Positions 7-16,610 of a stretch of 16,688 nucleotides of DNA are shown here, piece after piece. The notes under the pieces are model-generated. The model worked only from the letters and a program-made list of their open reading frames with translations, was not told the origin of the DNA and did no database searches. Positions within the stretch are counted from its first letter, which is position 1, and every line of letters begins with the position of its first letter. The stretch is from a virus (Duplodnaviria > Heunggongvirae > Uroviricota > Caudoviricetes). The stretch lies in IMG/VR virus record IMGVR_UViG_2529293040_000016; one strand, written 5' to 3'. Made by a program: the position numbers and the translations under genes.

Positions 7-1347
7 TTAAAAATCAGCCTGATTCGGGATCAGTTTTTGCCAGATAACTGAAACGTATTTTGCTTGGTAACGGGCGTCATCAAGTGCATTATGGCGCTCA
101 CCTTCGAATGGAATAGCCGTTCTGGCATCGAAGTCTATGGCTTTCCCCAGCTCAACGATTGTGCGTACATCGCGATCGTTGTAGTAACGCCACGGGCAGG
201 GGATCCCCTGCCGTTCGTATGAACGGCGCAAAATCGTGTTGTCGAAGTTGGCTCCATTTCCCCAGACCTGAACAAAAAATTCACCGGAGTTTTCGTCGAT
301 AAATTCCCGCAATTGTAACAGTGCATCATCTAACGGGATTTCATCGGTCATAATGGCAGATTGCGCTTCGCGTGATTGCTTAAGCCACCATTTAATGGTG
401 TCCCGATCAATGACCCCGCCAGCAGTTTCCAGATCGATAGTCTTACTAAATTCCGGTCCCATATCTCCGGTTTGCGGATCGAAAAATATTGCACCTATTG
501 AGATGATCGGGGCATCAGGATTTTTTCCCATGGTTTCAAGGTCGATCATTAGATGGTCACACGTCCTGCTGGTGGATGTGATTTCGTGATGACCGTTCAC
601 CTTAATTGAGTGATCTGCCGTCTCGCCAGTTTCATTATCGCTATCGTGATGCTGATTGCCGTCAGTGTTCTCCTTGTGTGGATGCTCAGCGCCTTCCATT
701 TCCTCCGGATCATCTTCCTGAACTTCAACCTGATACTCTTCATCGAATGTTTCCTGGTATGTTGCGTCGCCCATCACCGCGCCACAATCAGGGCAGTTGC
801 CGCCGCCGGTCTGACCGCAGGCGGTGCAGACTTTTTCCACTTCCTGTTGCGCCACTGGTTCAGGCTGTTTCGTTTCTGGCTCGTTTTGTAACGCATTTGG
901 GCTGTTTTGTTCCGCTTTCTGGCCGTTCTGTTCCGTTTCTTGCTGGTTCTGATTCACTGAATCGCGGGTTTCAATCCCCTTCACCCATTTCGGATCATTC
1001 TGGTCGCTAATCCCTGCAACAAATTCTCCGCGAGAGGCAGCAAGCAACTTATCGGCGTCAGGCTGGCTGATATTGGCTGCCTGCATAATTTTGTTTACTT
1101 CGTCAGCGGTAACTTTTACCGGCTCTGGTTGTGCGGTCGTGTCAGATGCACCAGTATTTTGTTGTGAACCTGAGTATGTACCGTTTTTGCGGGCGAAATA
1201 TTCTTCTTTCGTGATTTCAGTAGCCCCTGTAGCCAGTGCCTTATCCAGACCAGAAAGTTTGTTTGCGCGACCGTATTTTTCGCTATCCTTGTCGGTGAAG
1301 AGGAAGTAGAACGGCCCTTCACGCTCTACAGATGGTTCGACTTCCAC
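7..1347 (-). CDS. DnaQ-like (DEDDh) 3'-5' exonuclease domain protein with acidic/Gln-rich N-terminal region containing a CxxC...CxxC zinc-ribbon-like motif
   Basis: 446-aa ORF in track. C-terminal half has the three exonuclease motifs as read by eye: MIDLETMG (D-x-E), [19 protein letters not shown] (H-x-x-x-x-D). N-terminal part has [16 protein letters not shown]. Start codon is GTG at 1347, overlapping the 3' end of the upstream gene by 22 nt; no clear SD, so start is uncertain. Confidence 0.75.
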
Positions 1348-2477
1348 TTTGCATTCGGTTTTTTCGTGTCCGGAATTGCCGTTTCCACTGCATCAGTTTC
1401 TGGTACTGGCGACGAGAGAGTATCAGTTGCGCTCTGATTTCTTCCTTCATCTTCAAACACGCCCTTTGTAGTCAGGTATTCAGTAATGTATTTGTTCAGT
1501 GCCACAGGGTCTTTGTGAATGTCGATCGGACGTTCACGGACAAGGCCAAAAATAGTCTGGCGGTCGTAGCGAAGGGCATCAGGCTGTTTGCGCATTGATG
1601 CCGAGATACGCTTCCAGTCTTCGCGGTCGTTGTCGATAACTTCTTTTTTTGCCCAGCGATGGATGCTGCCGTCAATGTTTCCGGCATCCACATCACCAGG
1701 CCAGAGAGCGTAGGCCAGTTCGTCATCCAGTGTTTTCCATGTCTGCTTGTATTCGCGATGAATGGCAGCAATGACCGGGCTGATTTTTCCTGTTGAATTT
1801 TCAGTGTGCTGTTGATTGGCTCTGGCGCGGGCGAGATCAACAACAGACGTGTATTTTCCGGTTTCCTTGCGTTCACCTTCGCGACGTTTTTTCCAGATGC
1901 GCATCTCTGCCTGAATTTCGGGCCATTTGGCACCAGGCTTACATTTATGCTTAACCCACCCGATGGCATGCAGCTTAAGCTCCGGATACATGGCGTTAAC
2001 TTCTGGCATTTTCATCAACGCTTCAACGATATGTCCGTCGAATGTTGCCATGTCTTCCTGCAACAATTCCTGTGCGCTAATAACCATATCAACGGTGATG
2101 TTTTCACATGTGTCGAACTTAACCATGACAGCGTTCGGTACTTCAGGGGCCAGCTTGTCAAAAGTGACGTTCATCGGATCTGATTCAGTCTCAACCGGGA
2201 CAAAGGAAGCAGACTCCTCATCCCAGCGGTTTTCCTGCATATATTCAGCATCCCAGGAATCGAGGGCAGGGCGGGGTATGCCGGGTTTATCCTCACAGAC
2301 AATAAATTTATAAGCGCAGTCCTGAGCAGCCGGATAATGTTCCAGGAATTGCCAGTGAAATTTTGCTCGAGCACGGCGTTCGTCGCCAGCTTCAATGGCT
2401 GTGGCTACAGCCACAGCGCCTTCTTCCCTTGTTGCCAGTTCGTCAGGAATAGCAGCGCAAATAAAGACTTTACTCAT
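1326..2477 (-). CDS. Prophage early-left-operon protein of unknown function (YdfE-like by position downstream of dicB/ydfD)
   Basis: 383-aa ORF, ATG at 2477 preceded by GAGG about 9 nt upstream. Same strand and tight spacing with flanking genes. No catalytic motif recognised. Naming by synteny with Qin prophage is inference. Confidence 0.7.
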
Positions 2478-4573: not shown

Positions 4574-4992
4574 CTATGATGCGTTTTGTGCTTTCTTTTT
4601 ACGGATTTCTTCGTAGATCATATTGTAATACTGTTTTTTCTCTTCAAGAGTTTTTAATAATTTATCCGCTTCACTTTCTGGCAGTTCGTCTAAGAGATCT
4701 AAAAAAATACGTTGTCGTGGCGTTAGAACCCTTGTTTCATAACTGGAGGCTGTGTTCGTTGATGATGAAACGATACCATCCATCCATCCCCGGGGTAACC
4801 CAAAGGACTCTTCGATAATCTCCACCATATCATCAGCGATCCGTTTTTTCCCTTTTTCCCCTCTGGGTACAACATTCTTGATACATAAGAAGGCTCGCGC
4901 CCGATCTTTCTGGCCACGTTAACCGCTTTACCATCGCATTTCTCATCACGAATTTTGATGAGTTGCTGTCGTCTAAATTCATATTTGTCCAT
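4574..4992 (-). CDS. Immunity repressor (N-terminal HTH) encoded in two overlapping frames; apparent -1 frameshift at an A/G homopolymer tract
   Basis: Track ORFs 4723..4992 (HTH-like ...GKAVNVARKIGREPSYVSRML...) and 4574..4828 (protein-like C-terminus ...LTPRQRIFLDLLDELPESEADKLLKTLEE...) are on the same strand, offset by -1. Both frames are open across the minus-strand GGGGAAAAAGGGAAAAAACGG tract (plus-strand 4843-4862). The ATG at 4992 has no SD. Confidence 0.6.
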
Positions 4993-5805: not shown

Positions 5806-6768
5806 ATGAGCAGCAAGCTTCATGGTCTTGTCTGGGAAGGGTGCGCCTTCACCGGCATGATCTTATCCAGGGTGGCGGTTATGGCCCGTCTTGCAGACTA
5901 CAGCAATGACGAGGGCGTGTCATGGCCTGCCATTGAAACTATCCGGCGTCAGATCGGTGCAAGAAGTGAATCCACAGTGAAATCGGCTATTGCAGAACTG
6001 GCGAAAGAGGGCTGGCTGACGAAGGAAGAGCGTAAGGTCGGTGGGCGTAATGTAAGCAATATCTATCGGCTTAATGTGGAAAAACTCGAAGCAGCTGCGG
6101 CGGCGGCGCGTGAGTCATATAAACCGAAAAGAAAAATTAGCCCGGCAAAAAATGACCCGTTAACAGTTGACCCGTCAAATATTGACCCCTCAACGGTTGA
6201 CCCGTCAAATTTTGATGGATCAACTGTTGATAAAAAACTGCCGATTAGGGGGGCGATGATTGACCCCGATCCGTCAGTATTAAAACCTGATCCGTCAGAT
6301 AAAAGATCTTCTTGTCCGGACGCTTCGCAACCGGACCCGCAGACGGCTGAACAGGATTTTTTAACCCGACACCCTGACGCGGTTGTGTTCAGTGCGAAAA
6401 AACGCCAGTGGGGAAGTCAGGAAGATTTGGTGTGCGCACAGTGGATCTGGGGACGAATCGTGAGTCTTTACGAGCAGGCGGCCAGCTATGATGGCGAGAT
6501 CGCTAGACCGAAAGAACCCAACTGGACAGCATGGGCCAATGACGTTCGCACAATGCGGATGCTGGATGGCAGAACTCACAGACAAATTTGTGAAATGTTT
6601 GGGCGTCTCCAGCGGGATTCGTTCTGGGTAAAAAACATCATGAGTCCGGCAAAACTCCGGGAAAAATGGGATGAACTGGTTATCCGCCTGGGGCGTTCGC
6701 CTGCGCAGCGTTGCGTGAATCACATTTCTGAACCGGACACTGAAATTCCGCCGGGCTTCAGGGGGTAA
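5806..6768 (+). CDS. Replication initiator (O-like) with N-terminal winged-HTH domain and in-gene iterons
   Basis: Track ORF 5791..6768; the ATG at 5806 follows a G-rich SD. The N-terminus (...LSRVAVMARLADYSNDEGVSWPAIETIRRQIGARSESTVKSAIAELAKEGWL) is typical of phage replication-initiator HTH domains. The central DP(S/L)(T/N)(V/I) peptide repeats are encoded by tandem DNA iterons. Confidence 0.75.
   Translation: MSSKLHGLVWEGCAFTGMILSRVAVMARLADYSNDEGVSWPAIETIRRQIGARSESTVKSAIAELAKEGWLTKEERKVGGRNVSNIYRLNVEKLEAAAAAARESYKPKRKISPAKNDPLTVDPSNIDPSTVDPSNFDGSTVDKKLPIRGAMIDPDPSVLKPDPSDKRSSCPDASQPDPQTAEQDFLTRHPDAVVFSAKKRQWGSQEDLVCAQWIWGRIVSLYEQAASYDGEIARPKEPNWTAWANDVRTMRMLDGRTHRQICEMFGRLQRDSFWVKNIMSPAKLREKWDELVIRLGRSPAQRCVNHISEPDTEIPPGFRG
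6153..6242 (+). repeat. Iteron array: about six tandem 15-bp repeats (TGACCCGTCAAATNT-like), probable replication origin inside the initiator gene
   Basis: Direct repeats with 15-bp period starting at 6153, 6168, 6183, 6198, 6213 and 6228, the last two degenerate and followed by an A-rich stretch. Further related copies lie at about 6260 and 6288. Same architecture as ori-lambda within gene O. Confidence 0.65.
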
Positions 6769-6808
6769 GTGTTAATTTCTGGTCATGAGGTAATTTTCAG
6801 GAGGGCTT

Positions 6809-7231
6809 GTGGCAAAAGTTTTTACACAAGAAGAGCGGGAAAAAATTAAAGGGCAGGTTGTTGAACTCGTACGCCAGAGTGGGCGCGAGACGTTACGACA
6901 ACTGGAAACTAAAACTGGGGCAACAAGATATCTGATGAGCGTTCTGGCCAGAGAGCTGGTTGCCAGTGGCGATGTATACAACTCTGGTTACGGGTTATTC
7001 CCGTCTGAACAGGCGCGTAAGGACTGGCAAAATGCCCGTAAAAAGCTCTCAAGGGCAAAGCTGAAGAAACCATCTGCGGTTGATCCGGACCTTATCTGGT
7101 CATTACCTGACGGAGAAATACGTCGCTACGACAGGCGTCAGAACATAATCTGTCGCGAGTGCCGGAAGAGCGAAGCTATGCAGCGCGTACTGGCGTTTTA
7201 TCAGGGGAATTTTGAGGAGGTGGTGCGGTGA
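6809..7231 (+). CDS. Hypothetical protein (140 aa)
   Basis: Track ORF with GTG start and AGGAGG SD at 6794-6799. No Walker A motif, so not a DnaC/P-type helicase loader. Function unknown. Confidence 0.65.
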   Translation: MAKVFTQEEREKIKGQVVELVRQSGRETLRQLETKTGATRYLMSVLARELVASGDVYNSGYGLFPSEQARKDWQNARKKLSRAKLKKPSAVDPDLIWSLPDGEIRRYDRRQNIICRECRKSEAMQRVLAFYQGNFEEVVR

Positions 7232-7474
7232 GTGAATCAAAATGCCAGGTTAATGGCAACAAGATAGAACCATGTGCAGCACTGGCAAAGTCCCTTGAGC
7301 GTGATGCTGAATACACGATGCGAAAAGGTCTGCTGATATACAAAATCTGAAATGAGAGTTTAACTCGCGGTCCTGATTTTGTGATGTTGCGTTCCGGTGA
7401 ATTTTCTAAATTACCAGTTCGGGTTTCATTTTGTCCGTTCTGTGGTGAAAGTCTGAAAACGTGGGAGAACAGAA

Positions 7475-7786
7475 ATGAATGAAATTAAAGAAATACCAGT
7501 AGTACGTGATGAATATGGCTGCTGGACGCATCCTGAATATGAAAAATTCTGTGACGGTCGGGAATATATTTCAACGGAAGAGTTTAACGCCTGGATGGAG
7601 GAAAATAATCTTCAATACGGCCTCTGCTTCAGAGATGAAGGATGTGCTGACCTTGATGCGTGTGATGCTGATATTTCTGCATGGGAACCGGAACGACCAG
7701 AGGGCAATGGATGGTTTATTGGTTCAATACATGACACCGAAGATGGCCCGGTTTGTGTATGGCTGAGAAATAAGGTCGAAGCATAA
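7475..7786 (+). CDS. Hypothetical acidic Cys-rich phage protein (103 aa), nin-region type
   Basis: Track ORF. Codon usage and GC match the prophage backbone. No family assigned. Confidence 0.65.
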   Translation: MNEIKEIPVVRDEYGCWTHPEYEKFCDGREYISTEEFNAWMEENNLQYGLCFRDEGCADLDACDADISAWEPERPEGNGWFIGSIHDTEDGPVCVWLRNKVEA

Positions 7787-7918
7787 AGGCTATAAACCGA
7801 CTAACAACTAAATACTGAAGATTTAAATCAGAAACGATTTTTATTAAATCCTTAACCGGAGGGATTCCTGCACCCTCAAATCATCAGGAGGCCGCCCGAA
7901 AGGGCGGTGGAGATAATA

Positions 7919-8413
7919 ATGGGAATAACTAAAGAACGATTGTTGGAAATAGCAAACCTTAGTGATTGGGCATTAAGTGATGAGAGAATTGTTTCTCCTC
8001 ATGCTTATGAGTCAGTTACAAGTATAGAAATAACAACAATGGCTAGAATGCTGCTTGGTTATTTCAAAATAGAAAATAAAAAACAGATGGATAGTAATGT
8101 TGATATATGTGAGATTTTAGACGATTGGGGGGCTTGGGTTGTGGCTGGTAATAGTTCTATTGATTGGCAGGAAATAGCTGATAAATATAAAAATGTTGTT
8201 CCTCATGGTAAAAAATCACGTCGTCAGTGCAGCAATGATGAAGGGCGAATTATTGACATTAGTATCCTTAGGTTAGAAAGATATAAGCAACAAGAATATG
8301 AGTTAATTGTTGCTCATTTCGTGATTGGTTTATCTCTTCGTGCTATTGCAAAGCAACAAGGATGTTCAGATGGAACAATTCGTAAAAGATTGCAAAAAGC
8401 CTTAGGTTTTTGA
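7919..8413 (+). CDS. HTH regulator with sigma-70 region-4 / LuxR-like C-terminal helix-turn-helix (164 aa), encoded in the low-GC island
   Basis: Track ORF 7907..8413; the ATG at 7919 has GGAG 6 nt upstream. C-terminus ...EYELIVAHFVIGLSLRAIAKQQGCSDGTIRKRLQKALGF resembles sigma region 4 / LuxR HTH. Markedly AT-rich. Convergent with the three-gene cassette. Confidence 0.65.
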   Translation: MGITKERLLEIANLSDWALSDERIVSPHAYESVTSIEITTMARMLLGYFKIENKKQMDSNVDICEILDDWGAWVVAGNSSIDWQEIADKYKNVVPHGKKSRRQCSNDEGRIIDISILRLERYKQQEYELIVAHFVIGLSLRAIAKQQGCSDGTIRKRLQKALGF

Positions 8414-8435: not shown

Positions 8436-9077
8436 TTAAGAGTCAGCGGTTTTTTTACCAGTGTAATGGTATAAGGATACTCCCATGTGTCTTACATGAT
8501 ATGGAAGCGCTGTTGCTGGATGCTTTGTGATACTCTTAAAGCGGAGGGGAGAGCCTTCCGCTTCAATTTCTGCGTCCGAAACGGTCGTAGAGAAAAATTC
8601 TTTCCATTCATTGAATTTTACTGCTGATTTGTCAGACTTTATATAAATTAGAATTCCTCCATGATCGTCACGTGACGTACCCGTGCCGTAACGTTCGGTT
8701 AGCTGAATCCAGCCATTATGAATAGATTTGGGGCCTCTCCATAATTTTGCTTCACCGATCCATTCGAATTTTCCGAATTGATGTTTAACTAATAAATCAA
8801 CGTGACCGCCATGTTGAGTATCATGTTCAACATCATAAAACCTACCTTTCAGGAAATTTTTGATCGACGCTGTTAGCTCGTCCTCTCCCCACTTAGCATC
8901 TTGATAGAAGTGTTTGTCATTTTCTAAATTCTGAATAGCGTCGTCTAAATCTTCATAGAGTTGCTTTACAAAAATATTTTTGTCTGCAGCTAATTTTCTT
9001 TGAACCATTCCCCTAAATTCAGGATCCATTCTAATTAATGATTGAAGGTCTGCAGTACAGATGTTTACATCACTCAT
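8436..9077 (-). CDS. Cassette gene 3: putative PD-(D/E)xK-fold nuclease (213 aa)
   Basis: Track ORF 8436..9140; the ATG at 9077 has GGAGAG upstream and lies 4 nt after the stop of the preceding gene. Motif GGHVDLLVK ... FEWIGEAK fits the hhhD ... hhE-x-K spacing of restriction-endonuclease-like nucleases. Assignment is inference from motif only. Confidence 0.6.
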   Translation of the reverse strand: MSDVNICTADLQSLIRMDPEFRGMVQRKLAADKNIFVKQLYEDLDDAIQNLENDKHFYQDAKWGEDELTASIKNFLKGRFYDVEHDTQHGGHVDLLVKHQFGKFEWIGEAKLWRGPKSIHNGWIQLTERYGTGTSRDDHGGILIYIKSDKSAVKFNEWKEFFSTTVSDAEIEAEGSPLRFKSITKHPATALPYHVRHMGVSLYHYTGKKTADS

Positions 9078-9498
9078 GCAGACTCTCCAAAAGACTCGAA
9101 GGAGTAAAGTATGGATAAAGATACTGGCTAAAATTATCAACCAATTCGCCAGTTTCTGGATGGTAAAAACTTCCTGTGTCTAAAGCATAGGAAATAAGAT
9201 CATCTTCAACTGGTATTGGTTCTTCCGTTAAATTATCAATGTATTGAAAATGCATATCCAATAGATGTGCTTTATAGCTAGATAAATAATCAGTTGCTTT
9301 TATTAGCAGGATATAGTCATCTTTCGTATCAGTTAGATAGGTTAAACCATTGATAAGGGTTTTGTATGTAAAGTGATTGATATTTTTAGCATCTTTACTA
9401 ACCAGAAAAAGAAAAAGATCACGACACACACTGCGAACAGGATCATTAAAATCCTGCTCTATTTGCGTGATAATGTCGTGATATATACTCTTTTTCAT
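9070..9498 (-). CDS. Cassette gene 2: acidic hypothetical protein (142 aa)
   Basis: Track ORF. Its ATG overlaps the stop of the upstream ORF as ATGA, indicating translational coupling. No recognisable domain. Confidence 0.6.
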   Translation of the reverse strand: MKKSIYHDIITQIEQDFNDPVRSVCRDLFLFLVSKDAKNINHFTYKTLINGLTYLTDTKDDYILLIKATDYLSSYKAHLLDMHFQYIDNLTEEPIPVEDDLISYALDTGSFYHPETGELVDNFSQYLYPYFTPSSLLESLHE

Positions 9499-10585
9499 TT
9501 ATGGCCTGATGATCTCGCTCTTCTTTTCTCTTCACAGGACTTAACAGAATCCAATATTTTTTCAACAATAAATATAATCGAATCAATGTTGTTACAGTTC
9601 TTCGCAATTGCTTCATGCAACCTAATTCTAGGATTATCAAGCATTGTCCTTTTTCCTGGTAATATTAACTCTACTGATAAAATATGTGAAGAACTTTGTG
9701 GTAAATCCCAAATTTTTCCCAACTTAAACTTTGTCAATATTGGGCTTGCGGACTCTCCACTATGATGGTAAACATCTTGACGCAAACACTTTTGACTTGG
9801 TTTGAGTTTTAAAGAACTTGTATTGCCATCTGAGGTGATAAAAGATACATGAGAAATTCTGCCATCTACTTTTTCGTAAAGATCTTGTATTGAACCAAAT
9901 AATTCAAGAGGATTGTTTAAAATAACGCCAGCTTCTTTTTTATAAATTTAGCCACAAGGTATTGTTGAGGCTGTGATTCACTTCTTGGAAGGATAGATAA
10001 ATCAATCGTAAGAATTAATATTTTTTCTGCAGGCATTAGCATGATGGTATTAAAGCATTGCGTGACTTGGCGTGTTTTGCATTTTATTTCTCCACCATTA
10101 GCACGTAATTCCATACCCGCATCGCTAAGATGTGTTGGGTCAAGCTCTATCACTTCAGTGTAATACGCTTTGGATAAAAAAACAGCAGTGTCAATTTGTT
10201 TATCACGAATGATATCTTGACGTAGTTCAGCAAAATGCAGCTCAGTATCAGCAACTAACAGCTCCTCTCTGGATAAAGGAATTGGGTATTTTTCTGAGAA
10301 GGGGCTATTGTCCTTTTTCTGATTTGTGAAAATTGTTTGTAATTTTGCTACGTCTTCATCGGTGATTCTATAAATAGAAAGTAATCGATTCCCGCTAAAA
10401 ATTAAACCTTTCCAGAAATCGTCGATTCTGTCTTTTAGGTCGGGATTATGCTGAACTACACTATTTACACGTTCAATAAAAAGGGGTAATCCTTGGGCCG
10501 TTACACCCAGTGATGAACCAAGAAGCTTACGGGTGTTGCGCCAGCCAAAGCGTGAATTGATGTTTTTTACTGTTTGCTCAAGCAT
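9495..10585 (-). CDS. Cassette gene 1: protein of unknown function encoded in two frames (zero-frame product 222 aa; -1 fusion product about 363 aa)
   Basis: Track ORFs 9917..10591 and 9495..9785; the ATG at 10585 has AAGGAAG 6 nt upstream. The frame of the downstream ORF is open all the way up to 9947 and is -1 relative to the upstream ORF. The overlap contains A_AAA_AAG in the zero frame (plus-strand 9935-9941). Confidence 0.55.
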
Positions 10586-10726
10586 TAACACTTCCTTAAT
10601 TTTCCCTTAACAATTTAGGGTGCTAAACTTTTTTGCGCAGTTTACATAAAAAAATAGTGCGTACGCAAAAACTATCTAACATGATGAGCTTTAACCGGGA
10701 AATTTGTATATGTTGTGAGCATAAAG

Positions 10727-10755: not shown

Positions 10756-10874
10756 GACTGCGGGTGCTTGAGGCTATCTGTCTCAGGCATGAACACCAAA
10801 AGGCAGATAGAGAAAAGCCCCAGTTAACATTACGCGTCCGGCAAGACGCTTAACATTAATCTGAGGCCATATCT

Positions 10875-11087
10875 ATGCTCTACACACGTAGGTTAGCCTC
10901 TTACGTGCCGAAAGGCAAGGAGAAGCAGGCTATGAAGCAGCAAAAGGCGATGTTAATCGCCCTGATCGTCATCTGTTTAACCGTCATAATGACGGCACTG
11001 GTAACGAGGAAAGACCTCTGCGAGGTACGAATCCGAACCGGCCAGACGGAGGTCGCTGTCTTCACAGCTTACGAACCTGAGGAGTAA
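10875..11087 (+). CDS. mok: Mok-like regulatory ORF (in-frame N-terminal extension of hok)
   Basis: 70-aa track ORF containing the hok ORF in the same frame, as in chromosomal mokC/hokC loci (recalled). Confidence 0.55.
   Translation: MLYTRRLASYVPKGKEKQAMKQQKAMLIALIVICLTVIMTALVTRKDLCEVRIRTGQTEVAVFTAYEPEE
10932..11087 (+). CDS. hok: Hok/Gef-family type I toxin (51 aa)
   Basis: MKQQKAMLIALIVICLTVIMTALVTRKDLCEVRIRTGQTEVAVFTAYEPEE is a clear Hok-family sequence (TM helix plus conserved ...TRKDLCEV...RTGQTEVAVF...). AAGGAG SD 9 nt upstream of the ATG. Confidence 0.85.
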   Translation: MKQQKAMLIALIVICLTVIMTALVTRKDLCEVRIRTGQTEVAVFTAYEPEE

Positions 11088-11154: not shown

Positions 11155-11181
11155 AACCCGCTTCGGCGGGTTTTGTTTTTT
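11155..11181 (+). terminator. Rho-independent terminator downstream of hok
   Basis: Stem CCCGC (11157-11161) / GCGGG (11166-11170) with TTCG loop, followed by TTTTGTTTTTT. Confidence 0.6.
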
Positions 11182-13731: not shown

Positions 13732-13857
13732 GTGCCACTTATCTCGGATAGACATGGTGAATGCGCTGGTGGAGGAGATAAGGGTGATTTTTGTATGCTT
13801 GCAAGTAACCGGCTCATTTAAACCGTCTGGTCTGTTTCCTCCGGCTCTACAAAAATA

Positions 13858-14533
13858 ATGTCCATCATTTTTAATGGACACTATCGTATGAAACACCGGA
13901 CCTGGATCACTGAAGCTTTACGTCTTCACTTTGAAGAACATTTACCCCGGGTTGTGGCCGGGCGTCGCCTGGGTGTACCAAAATCAACAGTTTGTAGTAT
14001 GTTCGTGCGCTTTCGGAGAGCTGGCCTTTCGTGGCCTTTGCCCGCAGGCATGTCGGAGCAGGAACTTGATGCCTGCCTTTACGGACAATTTTCCACGGTA
14101 CCAGTCGTACGTCCTGAAAGCACCGTTATATCCGAAGCCCCCGTGGTAAAAACGTCCCCGGCGGCCCAACTTCCCTTATGAGTTTAAAATCGCCTTAGTG
14201 GAGCAGTCACTGCAGCCCGGAGCCTGTGTGGCGCAGATCGCCCGGGAAAACGGAATCAACGATAACCTGCTCTTCAACTGGCGCCATCAATACCGGAAAG
14301 GTGGCCTGCTGCCTTCCGGAAAAAATATGCCGGCACTGCTTCCCGTGACGTTAACGCCGGAGCCGGATAATAAAATCCCGGCCCCCGCACAGGAACCAGA
14401 GCAGATAAATACACCGTCCGACAGTCTGTGTTGTGAGCTGGTTCTGCCGGCCGGAACTCTCAGGCTTAAAGGTAAACTGACGCCGGCGTTATTACAGACA
14501 CTTATCCGCGAAATAAAAGGGAGCAGCCACTGA
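13858..14533 (+). CDS. tnpA: IS66-family tnpA, split between two frames (13858..14181 and 14150..14533)
   Basis: The downstream frame carries the conserved TnpA core (RRPNFPYEFK...PGACVAQIARENGINDNLLFNWRHQY) but has a TAA immediately upstream of it. The upstream 107-aa ORF (HTH-like) ends 30 nt later in the +1-offset frame. The overlap contains AAAAA and CCCC runs. Confidence 0.5.
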
Positions 14534-14880
14534 TGATATCTCTCCCTGCAGGTTCGCGTATCTGGCTGGTTGCAGGTATCACCGATATGCGAAATGGCTT
14601 TAACGGCCTGGCATCAAAAGTTCAGAACGTCCTGAAGGATGACCCGTTCTCCGGACACCTGTTCATCTTCCGCGGACGCCGGGGTGACCAGATAAAAGTG
14701 TTGTGGGCTGACAGTGACGGACTGTGCCTCTTCACCAAACGCCTGGAGCGGGGCCGCTTCGTCTGGCCAGTCACCCGTGACGGCAAGGTGCACCTTACTC
14801 CGGCTCAGTTATCCATGCTTCTTGAAGGTATCAACTGGAAGCACCCGAAACGAACGGAACGCGCTGGAATCCGCATATAA
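14533..14880 (+). CDS. tnpB: IS66-family TnpB (Orf2, 115 aa)
   Basis: Sequence MISLPAGSRIWLVAGITDMRNGFNGLASKVQNVL...FRGRRGDQIKVLWADSDGLCLFTKRLERGRFVWP is the characteristic IS66 Orf2 signature. Start overlaps the tnpA stop as TGATG. Confidence 0.85.
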   Translation: MISLPAGSRIWLVAGITDMRNGFNGLASKVQNVLKDDPFSGHLFIFRGRRGDQIKVLWADSDGLCLFTKRLERGRFVWPVTRDGKVHLTPAQLSMLLEGINWKHPKRTERAGIRI

Positions 14881-14899
14881 CCCGTTGTAAAGTGAGGAT

Positions 14900-16471
14900 A
14901 TGGACACCTCACTTGCTCATGAGAACGCCCGCCTGCGGGCACTGTTGCAGACGCAACAGGACACCATCCGCCAGATGGCTGAATACAACCGCCTGCTCTC
15001 ACAGCGGGTGGCGGCTTATGCTTCCGAAATCAACCGGCTGAAGGCGCTGGTTGCGAAACTGCAACGTATGCAGTTCGGTAAAAGCTCAGAAAAACTTCGT
15101 GCAAAAACCGAACGGCAGATACAGGAAGCACAGGAGCGAATCAGCGCACTTCAGGAAGAAATGGCGGAAACGCTGGGTGAGCAATATGACCCGGTACTGC
15201 CATCCGCCCTGCGCCAGTCTTCAGCCCGTAAACCGTTACCGGCCTCACTTCCCCGTGAAACCCGGGTTATCCGGCCGGAAGAGGAATGCTGTCCTGCCTG
15301 TGGTGGTGAACTCAGTTCTCTGGGATGTGATGTGTCAGAGCAACTGGAGCTTATCAGCAGCGCCTTTAAGGTTATCGAAACACAACGTCCGAAACAGGCC
15401 TGTTGCCGGTGCGACCATATCGTGCAGGCACCAGTACCTTCAAAACCCATTGCACGCAGTTATGCCGGAGCGGGGCTTCTGGCCCATGTTGTCACCGGGA
15501 AATATGCAGACCATCTGCCGTTATACCGCCAGTCAGAAATATACCGTCGTCAGGGCGTGGAGCTGAGCCGTGCCACACTGGGGCGCTGGACAGGTGCTGT
15601 TGCTGAACTGCTGGAGCCGCTGTATGACGTCCTGCGCCAGTATGTGCTGATGCCCGGTAAAGTCCATGCTGATGATATCCCCGTCCCGGTCCAGGAGCCG
15701 GGCAGCGGTAAAACCCGGACAGCCCGGCTGTGGGTCTACGTCCGTGATGACCGTAACGCCGGTTCACAGATGCCCCCGGCGGTCTGGTTCGCGTACAGTC
15801 CGGACCGGAAAGGTATCCATCCACAAAATCACCTGGCCGGTTACAGCGGTGTGCTTCAGGCCGATGCTTACGGTGGTTACCGGGCGTTATACGAATCCGG
15901 CAGAATAACGGAAGCCGCGTGTATGGCTCATGCCCGGAGAAAAATCCACGATGTGCATGCAAGAGCGCCCACCTACATCACCACGGAAGCCCTGCAGCGT
16001 ATCGGTGAACTGTATGCCATCGAGGCAGAGGTCCGGTGCTGTTCAGCAGAACAGCGTCTGGCGGCAAGAAAAGCCAGAGCCGCGCCACTGATGCAGTCAC
16101 TGTATGACTGGATACAGCAACAGATGAAAACACTGTCGCGTCACTCAGATACGGCAAAAGCGTTCGCATACCTGCTGAAACAGTGGGATGCACTGAACGT
16201 GTACTGCAGTAATGGCTGGGTGGAAATCGACAACAACATCGCAGAGAACGCCTTACGGGGAGTGGCCGTAGGCCGGAAAAACTGGATGTTCGCGGGTTCC
16301 GACAGCGGTGGTGAACATGCGGCGGTGTTGTACTCGCTGATCGGCACATGCCGTCTGAACAATGTGGAGCCAGAAAAGTGGCTGCGTTACGTCATTGAAC
16401 ATATCCAGGACTGGCCGGCAAACCGGGTACGCGATCTGTTGCCCTGGAAAGTTGATCTGAGCTCTCAGTAA
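14900..16471 (+). CDS. tnpC: IS66-family transposase TnpC (523 aa)
   Basis: N-terminal leucine-zipper-like coiled coil, Cys4 zinc finger (CPACGG...CCRCDH), and a long catalytic region typical of IS66 transposases. GTGAGG SD upstream. Confidence 0.85.
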
Positions 16472-16610
16472 ATATCAATACGGTTCTGACGAGTCGCTTA
16501 CGATAAATGCACCGGCATCATCATAAAAAGTGAGCCAGCCAAATGGAAGGTATCGTTAAACTCACCGGTAGTGTCAGTGGGTCGTCTGAGATGCCTGCAT
16601 GAGTTATCAG

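Follow-up and report, generated by a model that had tools for sequence, protein, structure and literature searches.

Loss of one A from an A7 run as the probable origin of two overlapping reading frames in a three-gene module of an Escherichia coli Rac-like prophage

A three-gene module between the Q-family antiterminator gene and hokD

The stretch of DNA analysed here, which we call the window (16,688 nt), is AIFA01000004.1 (GCA_000249155.2) from an E. coli draft of the DECA collection, the drafts of which span accessions AIEV-AIHS (PMC3558956). The window is a Rac-like lambdoid prophage whose best relative is the prophage of EPEC strain E2348/69 (99.6% over 13.8 kb), and its cargo comprises an exonuclease, YdaT, replication genes, a Q-family antiterminator, hokD, DUF968, RusA and Q. 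An IS66-family element at 13805-16501, with accessory ORFs at 14198..14533 and 14533..14880 and a transposase at 14900..16471, stands in for about 4.1 kb of E2348/69 that hold tRNA-Ile, tRNA-Arg, ISEc13 and a DUF6645 gene; the E2348/69 sequence resumes in the window at 16502.

Between the Q-family antiterminator gene and hokD lies a module of three genes with a low GC content (34-38%), all on the minus strand. The adjoining type I toxin gene hokD occupies 10932-11087 on the plus strand and is followed by a strong terminator-like hairpin at 11155-11172. The first gene of the module (gene 1) is spread over two overlapping frames in the window, and the features that bear on its interpretation are the following.

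9917..10585, minus strand: gene 1, 5' part (zero frame); intact codons 1-216, then six codons read out of frame (KLALF and one further K) up to a premature TAA
9495..9935, minus strand: gene 1, 3' part (-1 frame, EAGVILNN...SSGHK*); residues 217-363 of the intact protein
9935..9941, minus strand: heptamer A_AAA_AAG, which includes the A6 run (9936-9941); one base pair is missing here in comparison with A7
9070..9498, minus strand: gene 2, 142 aa, phrog_11490; its ATG and the gene 1 stop share the sequence ATGA
8436..9077, minus strand: gene 3, about 213 aa from the ATG at 9077, phrog_9664, a predicted PD-(D/E)xK nuclease
8436-10585, minus strand: the three-gene module as a whole; other copies lie at 6001-8159 in loci L016-L019, 5001-7145 in L021/L022 and 5001-7144 in L023/L024

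The module stands antisense beside the Q antiterminator gene in prophages of E. coli, Salmonella and Enterobacter. The gene order and the overlapping junctions are kept in the Salmonella and Enterobacter lambdoid prophages, where it lies between the Q and holin genes, and also in Yersinia, where it adjoins a gene for a giant LPD/MuF polyvalent protein, an unrelated context. A tblastn search of a phage collection with gene 1 returned only a weak partial match from Acinetobacter, so no annotated phage in that collection carries the module.

Profile scans of the three module proteins against Pfam, NCBIfam and PADLOC gave no meaningful match, and PHROGs placed them only in families of unknown function; gene 1 belongs to phrog_12777, whose function is unlabelled. 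Gene 1 has no Pfam match at E <= 1, the RdgC family PF04381 included, and no NCBIfam match, and sequence searches of the PDB with the gene 1 family profile, with gene 2 and with gene 3 were likewise without a match. An AlphaFold model of gene 1 built from a 31-sequence alignment (pLDDT 83, pTM 0.81) is nevertheless predicted to adopt an RdgC-like three-dimensional fold, the next structural matches being IML3, CENP-L and CHL4. Lambda RexA, an exclusion protein that binds DNA non-specifically, has been reported to have the same fold relatives (PMC11077077), although RexA itself is not among the top structural matches of our model. Gene 1 would thus share the RdgC and RexA fold but lacks the membership that Pfam, NCBIfam or PDB sequence matches would confer. 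The module also differs from the RexA system in its partners, which here are a soluble-looking protein of 142 aa and a PD-(D/E)xK nuclease and not a RexB-like membrane protein.

No fold could be assigned to gene 2 from its sequence. Gene 3 is predicted to have a restriction-endonuclease-like fold with an invariant D94...E109-x-K111, the signature of the PD-(D/E)xK nucleases. RefSeq annotates gene 3 with 197 aa, whereas its homologues measure 207-218 aa from an ATG that corresponds to window 9077 and gives an 8-nt overlap with the end of gene 2; since the homologues begin there, the RefSeq start is probably placed too far downstream. In PADLOC-DB 2.0, genes 1 and 2 have no match and gene 3 matches PDC-S54 weakly (E 0.0014), so that no catalogued defence system is recognised in the module. 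A literature search for the RefSeq protein accessions gave no result. From the predicted fold and the genomic context, the three genes may form a mobile module that is possibly a candidate phage-exclusion system.

The slippery heptamer at the junction of the two frames

On the minus strand, the zero frame of gene 1 runs for 222 codons from the ATG at 10585-10583 to the stop at 9919-9917 and ends with ...GCT AAA TTT ATA AAA AAG AAG CTG GCG TTA TTT TAA. Up to the lesion it is identical to residues 1-216 of WP_000893384.1, and the truncated product of 222 aa has already been deposited, as an exact match, under the description hypothetical protein (ECDEC1B_1533-type). In the -1 frame, a TAA at 9950-9948 precedes an open stretch that extends from 9947 to the TGA at 9497-9495, the earliest ATG, GTG or TTG within it being the TTG at 9785. 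The heptamer A_AAA_AAG is in phase with the zero frame (ATA AAA AAG), as the X_XXY_YYZ register requires. A -1 slip on it would give ...KFIKK-EAGVILNNPLELF..., a product of 363 aa with the junction peptide FIKKEAGVILNNPLELFGSIQDLYEK, in which every residue is that of the intact E2348/69 protein. The original prediction had given these positions for the two frames and the heptamer, had noted that the -1 frame holds no start codon before the TTG at 9785 and had anticipated a ...KFIKK- fusion of 363 aa. The sequence agrees with it on all of these points, the fusion being the E2348/69 protein itself. We dropped motif enrichment as a line of evidence; AAAAAAG is not over-represented in the window, where it occurs 4 times against an expectation of 5.8 +/- 2.3 (at least 4 occurrences in 171 of 200 shuffles).

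Two explanations had been offered for this arrangement, programmed -1 frameshifting and the loss of a single base from the A run. Programmed frameshifting of the dnaX/IS3 type would mean that an evolved signal yields a short form of 222 aa and a long form of 363 aa in a set ratio. The junction has much that such a signal should have: the heptamer is canonical and correctly in register, A_AAA_AAG ranks among the most shift-prone heptamers of E. coli (PMC4066793), the -1 frame is without a start of its own, and a slip would yield a protein that is both complete and conserved. The heptamer and its register are indeed those of dnaX and of IS3/IS911-type sites, as is the geometry of the overlap, in which the zero-frame stop follows soon after the heptamer. 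Unlike at those sites, however, the heptamer here is not conserved, it has neither an upstream Shine-Dalgarno stimulator nor a downstream stem-loop, and the long product does not fuse two functional units but is the ancestral protein, encoded in a single frame.

Neither of the two kinds of stimulatory element was found around the heptamer. The 65 nt that follow it fold with an MFE of -3.6 kcal/mol (z = +1.23), and 182 of 200 shuffled sequences fold equally well or better; a downstream stimulator, whether hairpin or pseudoknot, is ruled out by a fold that is weaker than that of the shuffled controls. Upstream, inspection by eye of the 20 nt before the heptamer revealed no Shine-Dalgarno-like (GGAGG-like) sequence. 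A systematic study in E. coli (Sharma et al. 2014, PMC4066793) put the background at 0.055% and found heptamers that lack a stimulator to exceed it 2.1-10 times; from these published values an unstimulated slip would be expected to give about 0.5% or less of full-length product. Because no stimulator is present, slippage at such a trace level would amount to leakiness and not to a programmed isoform switch. The A6 allele may all the same be slightly leaky, since a slip regenerates the exact wild-type sequence. The review by Atkins et al. 2016 (PMC5009743) treats adventitious frameshifting as able to 'correct' indels translationally, and here too the slippery run at the indel could restore the frame in a few ribosomes. 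The junction bears no sign, though, that such leakiness is selected or plays a physiological role, and the yield expected is small.

The A run in other E. coli genomes and in diverged homologues

A megablast search of 5,426 complete E. coli genomes with the gene found 14 loci at >= 99% identity, eight of which (L001-L008) were fetched and aligned with the window. All eight have A7 at the site, read as ATA AAA AAA GAA (I K K E), and the length of the match implies A7 in three further loci of the 14. Over 9450-10650 the window is the E2348/69 sequence save for one missing A, which BLAST maps to window 9935 and E2348/69 reference position 10829. RefSeq annotates a single CDS of 1092 nt for 363 aa (WP_000893384.1 or WP_000893387.1) in E2348/69, RM9154-C1, 2013C-3181, STEC367 and CFIAFB20190172. 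The split gene of the window thus has a near-identical orthologue with an uninterrupted ORF, WP_000893384.1 of E2348/69, as is expected of a frameshifted pseudogene. The second of the two explanations is the one that holds up, with A7 in each of the fetched loci and one CDS in those that are undisrupted. Judged from these sequence comparisons, one A has probably been lost from the A7 run, an ordinary frameshift mutation in place of programmed frameshifting. What is not random is the position of the heptamer, exactly where two frames of one known protein meet, and a 1-bp deletion in the A7 run accounts for it.

More distant relatives bear on the same question. A protein search returned 32 clusters, one of which is a 5'-truncated form (219 aa) of the E. 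coli protein, and the other 31 were used. They come from Salmonella, Enterobacter, Klebsiella, Kosakonia, Cronobacter, Pantoea, Erwinia, Rosenbergiella and Yersinia, share 39-99% identity and measure 336-408 aa, apart from one partial sequence of 305 aa. All 31 are single-frame, and the conserved two-frame arrangement that a programmed site should leave among homologues is absent. The residues at the site vary (KFIKKEAG, KFVKEHAG, QYVRSVTG, QFVRNVSG, HFIQDTTT), and so do the codons, which read GTG AAG GAG CAT in a relative of 75% identity and GTA AGA AAT GTT or ATT CAA GAC ACC in relatives of 50% identity. These diverged relatives have neither an A run nor a slippery heptamer at the homologous site, and the KK dipeptide is not conserved. 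An alternative form of the idea, in which the wild-type A7 allele itself would slip at A_AAA_AAA to make a short form, found no support, the run being unconserved in homologues.

The part of gene 1 that lies in the -1 frame encodes the majority of the family's invariant residues. The densest invariant block stands downstream of the shift (Y237, DGR241-243, DGN253-255, YH273-274, GK290-291, WD293-294, GKR311-313), which argues that the 3' part is integral to one protein and is not a separately regulated extension. The short form would end in six frame-shifted residues with this conserved core gone, which is hard to reconcile with an evolved pair of isoforms. So is the distribution of the arrangement: it is limited to one clonal haplotype, and the other alleles and the diverged homologues (31 clusters) are all single-frame and have no heptamer at the site. 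A canonical programmed -1 site is therefore without support from homologues, heptamer conservation or RNA structure. The comparative data already go most of the way to refuting programmed frameshifting, which we hold to be exceedingly improbable.

A different concern is that the strain may truly have A7 and that the draft under-calls the homopolymer, in which case there would be neither a frameshift nor a pseudogene. The source is a 2012 draft of the DECA collection, and the window differs from E2348/69 over 13.8 kb by 49 substitutions and four gaps, each of the latter being a 1-bp deletion in a T or A run on the window side (1366, 4843, 8406 and 9935) that breaks an ORF. The sister drafts, too, show sporadic and mutually inconsistent run lengths: indels of 1-2 bp are dispersed over their A/T runs and vary from one assembly to the next (reference positions 9299 in 3/5, 12070 in 2/5, and 9343-44, 13084 and 11542). 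The A6 call behaves differently. It was found only in five DEC drafts (AIEW, AIEX, AIFA, AIFB, AIFD) and in two Logan assemblies of independent read runs (SRR070669, SRR490662), and it is present in 5/5 of the former and 2/2 of the latter; all seven carriers have one haplotype in common over 2.35 kb. In both Logan contigs A6 is the sole indel, and the remaining four 7-mers of the same 6.7-kb stretch each have the wrong length in only 0-1 of the 5 drafts. With a sporadic error of about 10% per run per assembly, the same error would arise by chance in all seven with a probability below about 1e-5. Although the drafts do carry homopolymer noise, the agreement of seven assemblies on A6 within one haplotype makes a sequencing artefact unlikely. 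We infer that the deletion is biological, and it appears to be a 1-bp deletion inherited in common by the members of one clonal group, a conclusion of which we are fairly confident.

The other three gaps of the window were recorded as well. The deletion at 1366 (T run) splits a 2472-nt exonuclease gene into ORFs 7..1347 and 1326..2477, that at 4843 (T run) splits a hypothetical gene of 139 aa into ORFs 4574..4828 and 4723..4992, and that at 8406 (T run) affects the Q-family antiterminator gene at its 3' end (stop at 8413). The indel at 8406 is common to 3/5 of the DEC drafts that span that stretch, and 1366 and 4843 lie outside the stretch compared. The pattern suggests that these three run deletions are homopolymer sequencing noise.

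The 3' part of gene 1 carries no second lesion. Its intactness fits continued use through frameshifting, but is no less compatible with a mutation that arose very recently among near-identical clones.

Repeated inactivation of gene 1 and consequences for the module

Gene 1 has been disrupted independently, and in other ways, elsewhere. Among the fetched E. coli loci (L002, L003 and L008), a G is missing from JB2 at the equivalent of window 10413, the start ATG of N51 is without its T (window 10584), and ETEC1746 carries an IS1 that has taken away the 5' end. In the protein collection, truncated forms of 206 aa and 153 aa occur on 130 and 51 contigs, respectively, and one intact sequence of 363 aa on 62. 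Genes 2 and 3 are intact in the complete genomes examined. Set beside these cases, the lesion of the DEC strains reads as another inactivation of a frequently lost gene.

Repeated inactivation also raises the possibility of phase variation, in which the A run would be a reversible contingency tract that switches gene 1 on (A7) and off (A6). The lesion does sit in a homopolymer, the recurrent losses in E. coli suggest fluctuating or negative selection, and the module resembles a potentially costly system that contains a nuclease. However, only two states are seen and they are sorted by lineage, A6 in a single haplotype and A7 in 8/8 fetched loci and the three where it is implied, with none of the within-lineage polymorphism of a contingency locus. 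A tract of 7 nt is short for such a locus, the other lesions (a G deletion, the loss of a start codon, an IS1 insertion) are not changes of tract length, and the tract is missing in homologues. We regard phase variation as highly improbable.

Loss of one A as an ordinary mutation leads to the following account. In its usual form, gene 1 is a single open frame of 363 codons that includes an A7 run. In an EPEC clonal group of the DECA collection (DEC1/DEC2) one A would have been lost, most likely by replication slippage, and ribosomes would since then meet a TAA six codons further on and release a fragment of 222 aa that lacks the most conserved, C-terminal third. The in-register A_AAA_AAG would be an accidental by-product of the deletion, and a rare spontaneous -1 slip on it would remake the exact wild-type protein in a trace amount (about 0.5% or less). 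The A6 allele would accordingly be functionally null or nearly so. Premature termination may in addition reduce the coupled translation of genes 2 and 3, because the gene 1 stop and the gene 2 start overlap as ATGA and ribosomes would now terminate 420 nt upstream of that junction.

A variant of this account is that the A6 allele is not dead but an attenuated state of a prophage defence or exclusion module, with spontaneous -1 slippage on the new A_AAA_AAG or reversion of the tract keeping the gene 1 product at a trace level. If that were true, the cost of a potentially self-damaging module would be lowered while some of its function was kept, but we think it very unlikely. An ordinary inactivating deletion is also of a kind already known, since frameshifted homopolymer pseudogenes are common in the cryptic prophages of E. 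coli. As in those, there is here a loss of 1 bp, intact and otherwise identical orthologues and a truncated product, and the same prophage likewise carries further run-length lesions and IS insertions. We see no essential difference from that class; the oddity of the present case is an in-register A_AAA_AAG at which a slip can restore the frame.

The locus illustrates that losing 1 bp from a run of A's can produce what looks like a textbook programmed frameshift site, and that near and diverged homologues together resolve the matter. Calls of homopolymer length in the 2012 DECA drafts are unreliable, and annotation of the DEC drafts should treat the two ORFs as a single disrupted gene. For the biology of these prophages the lead is the module itself: it moves between lambdoid prophages, in which it lies next to Q, is absent from the defence catalogues and is often inactivated in E. 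coli, and it may deserve a test for phage exclusion.
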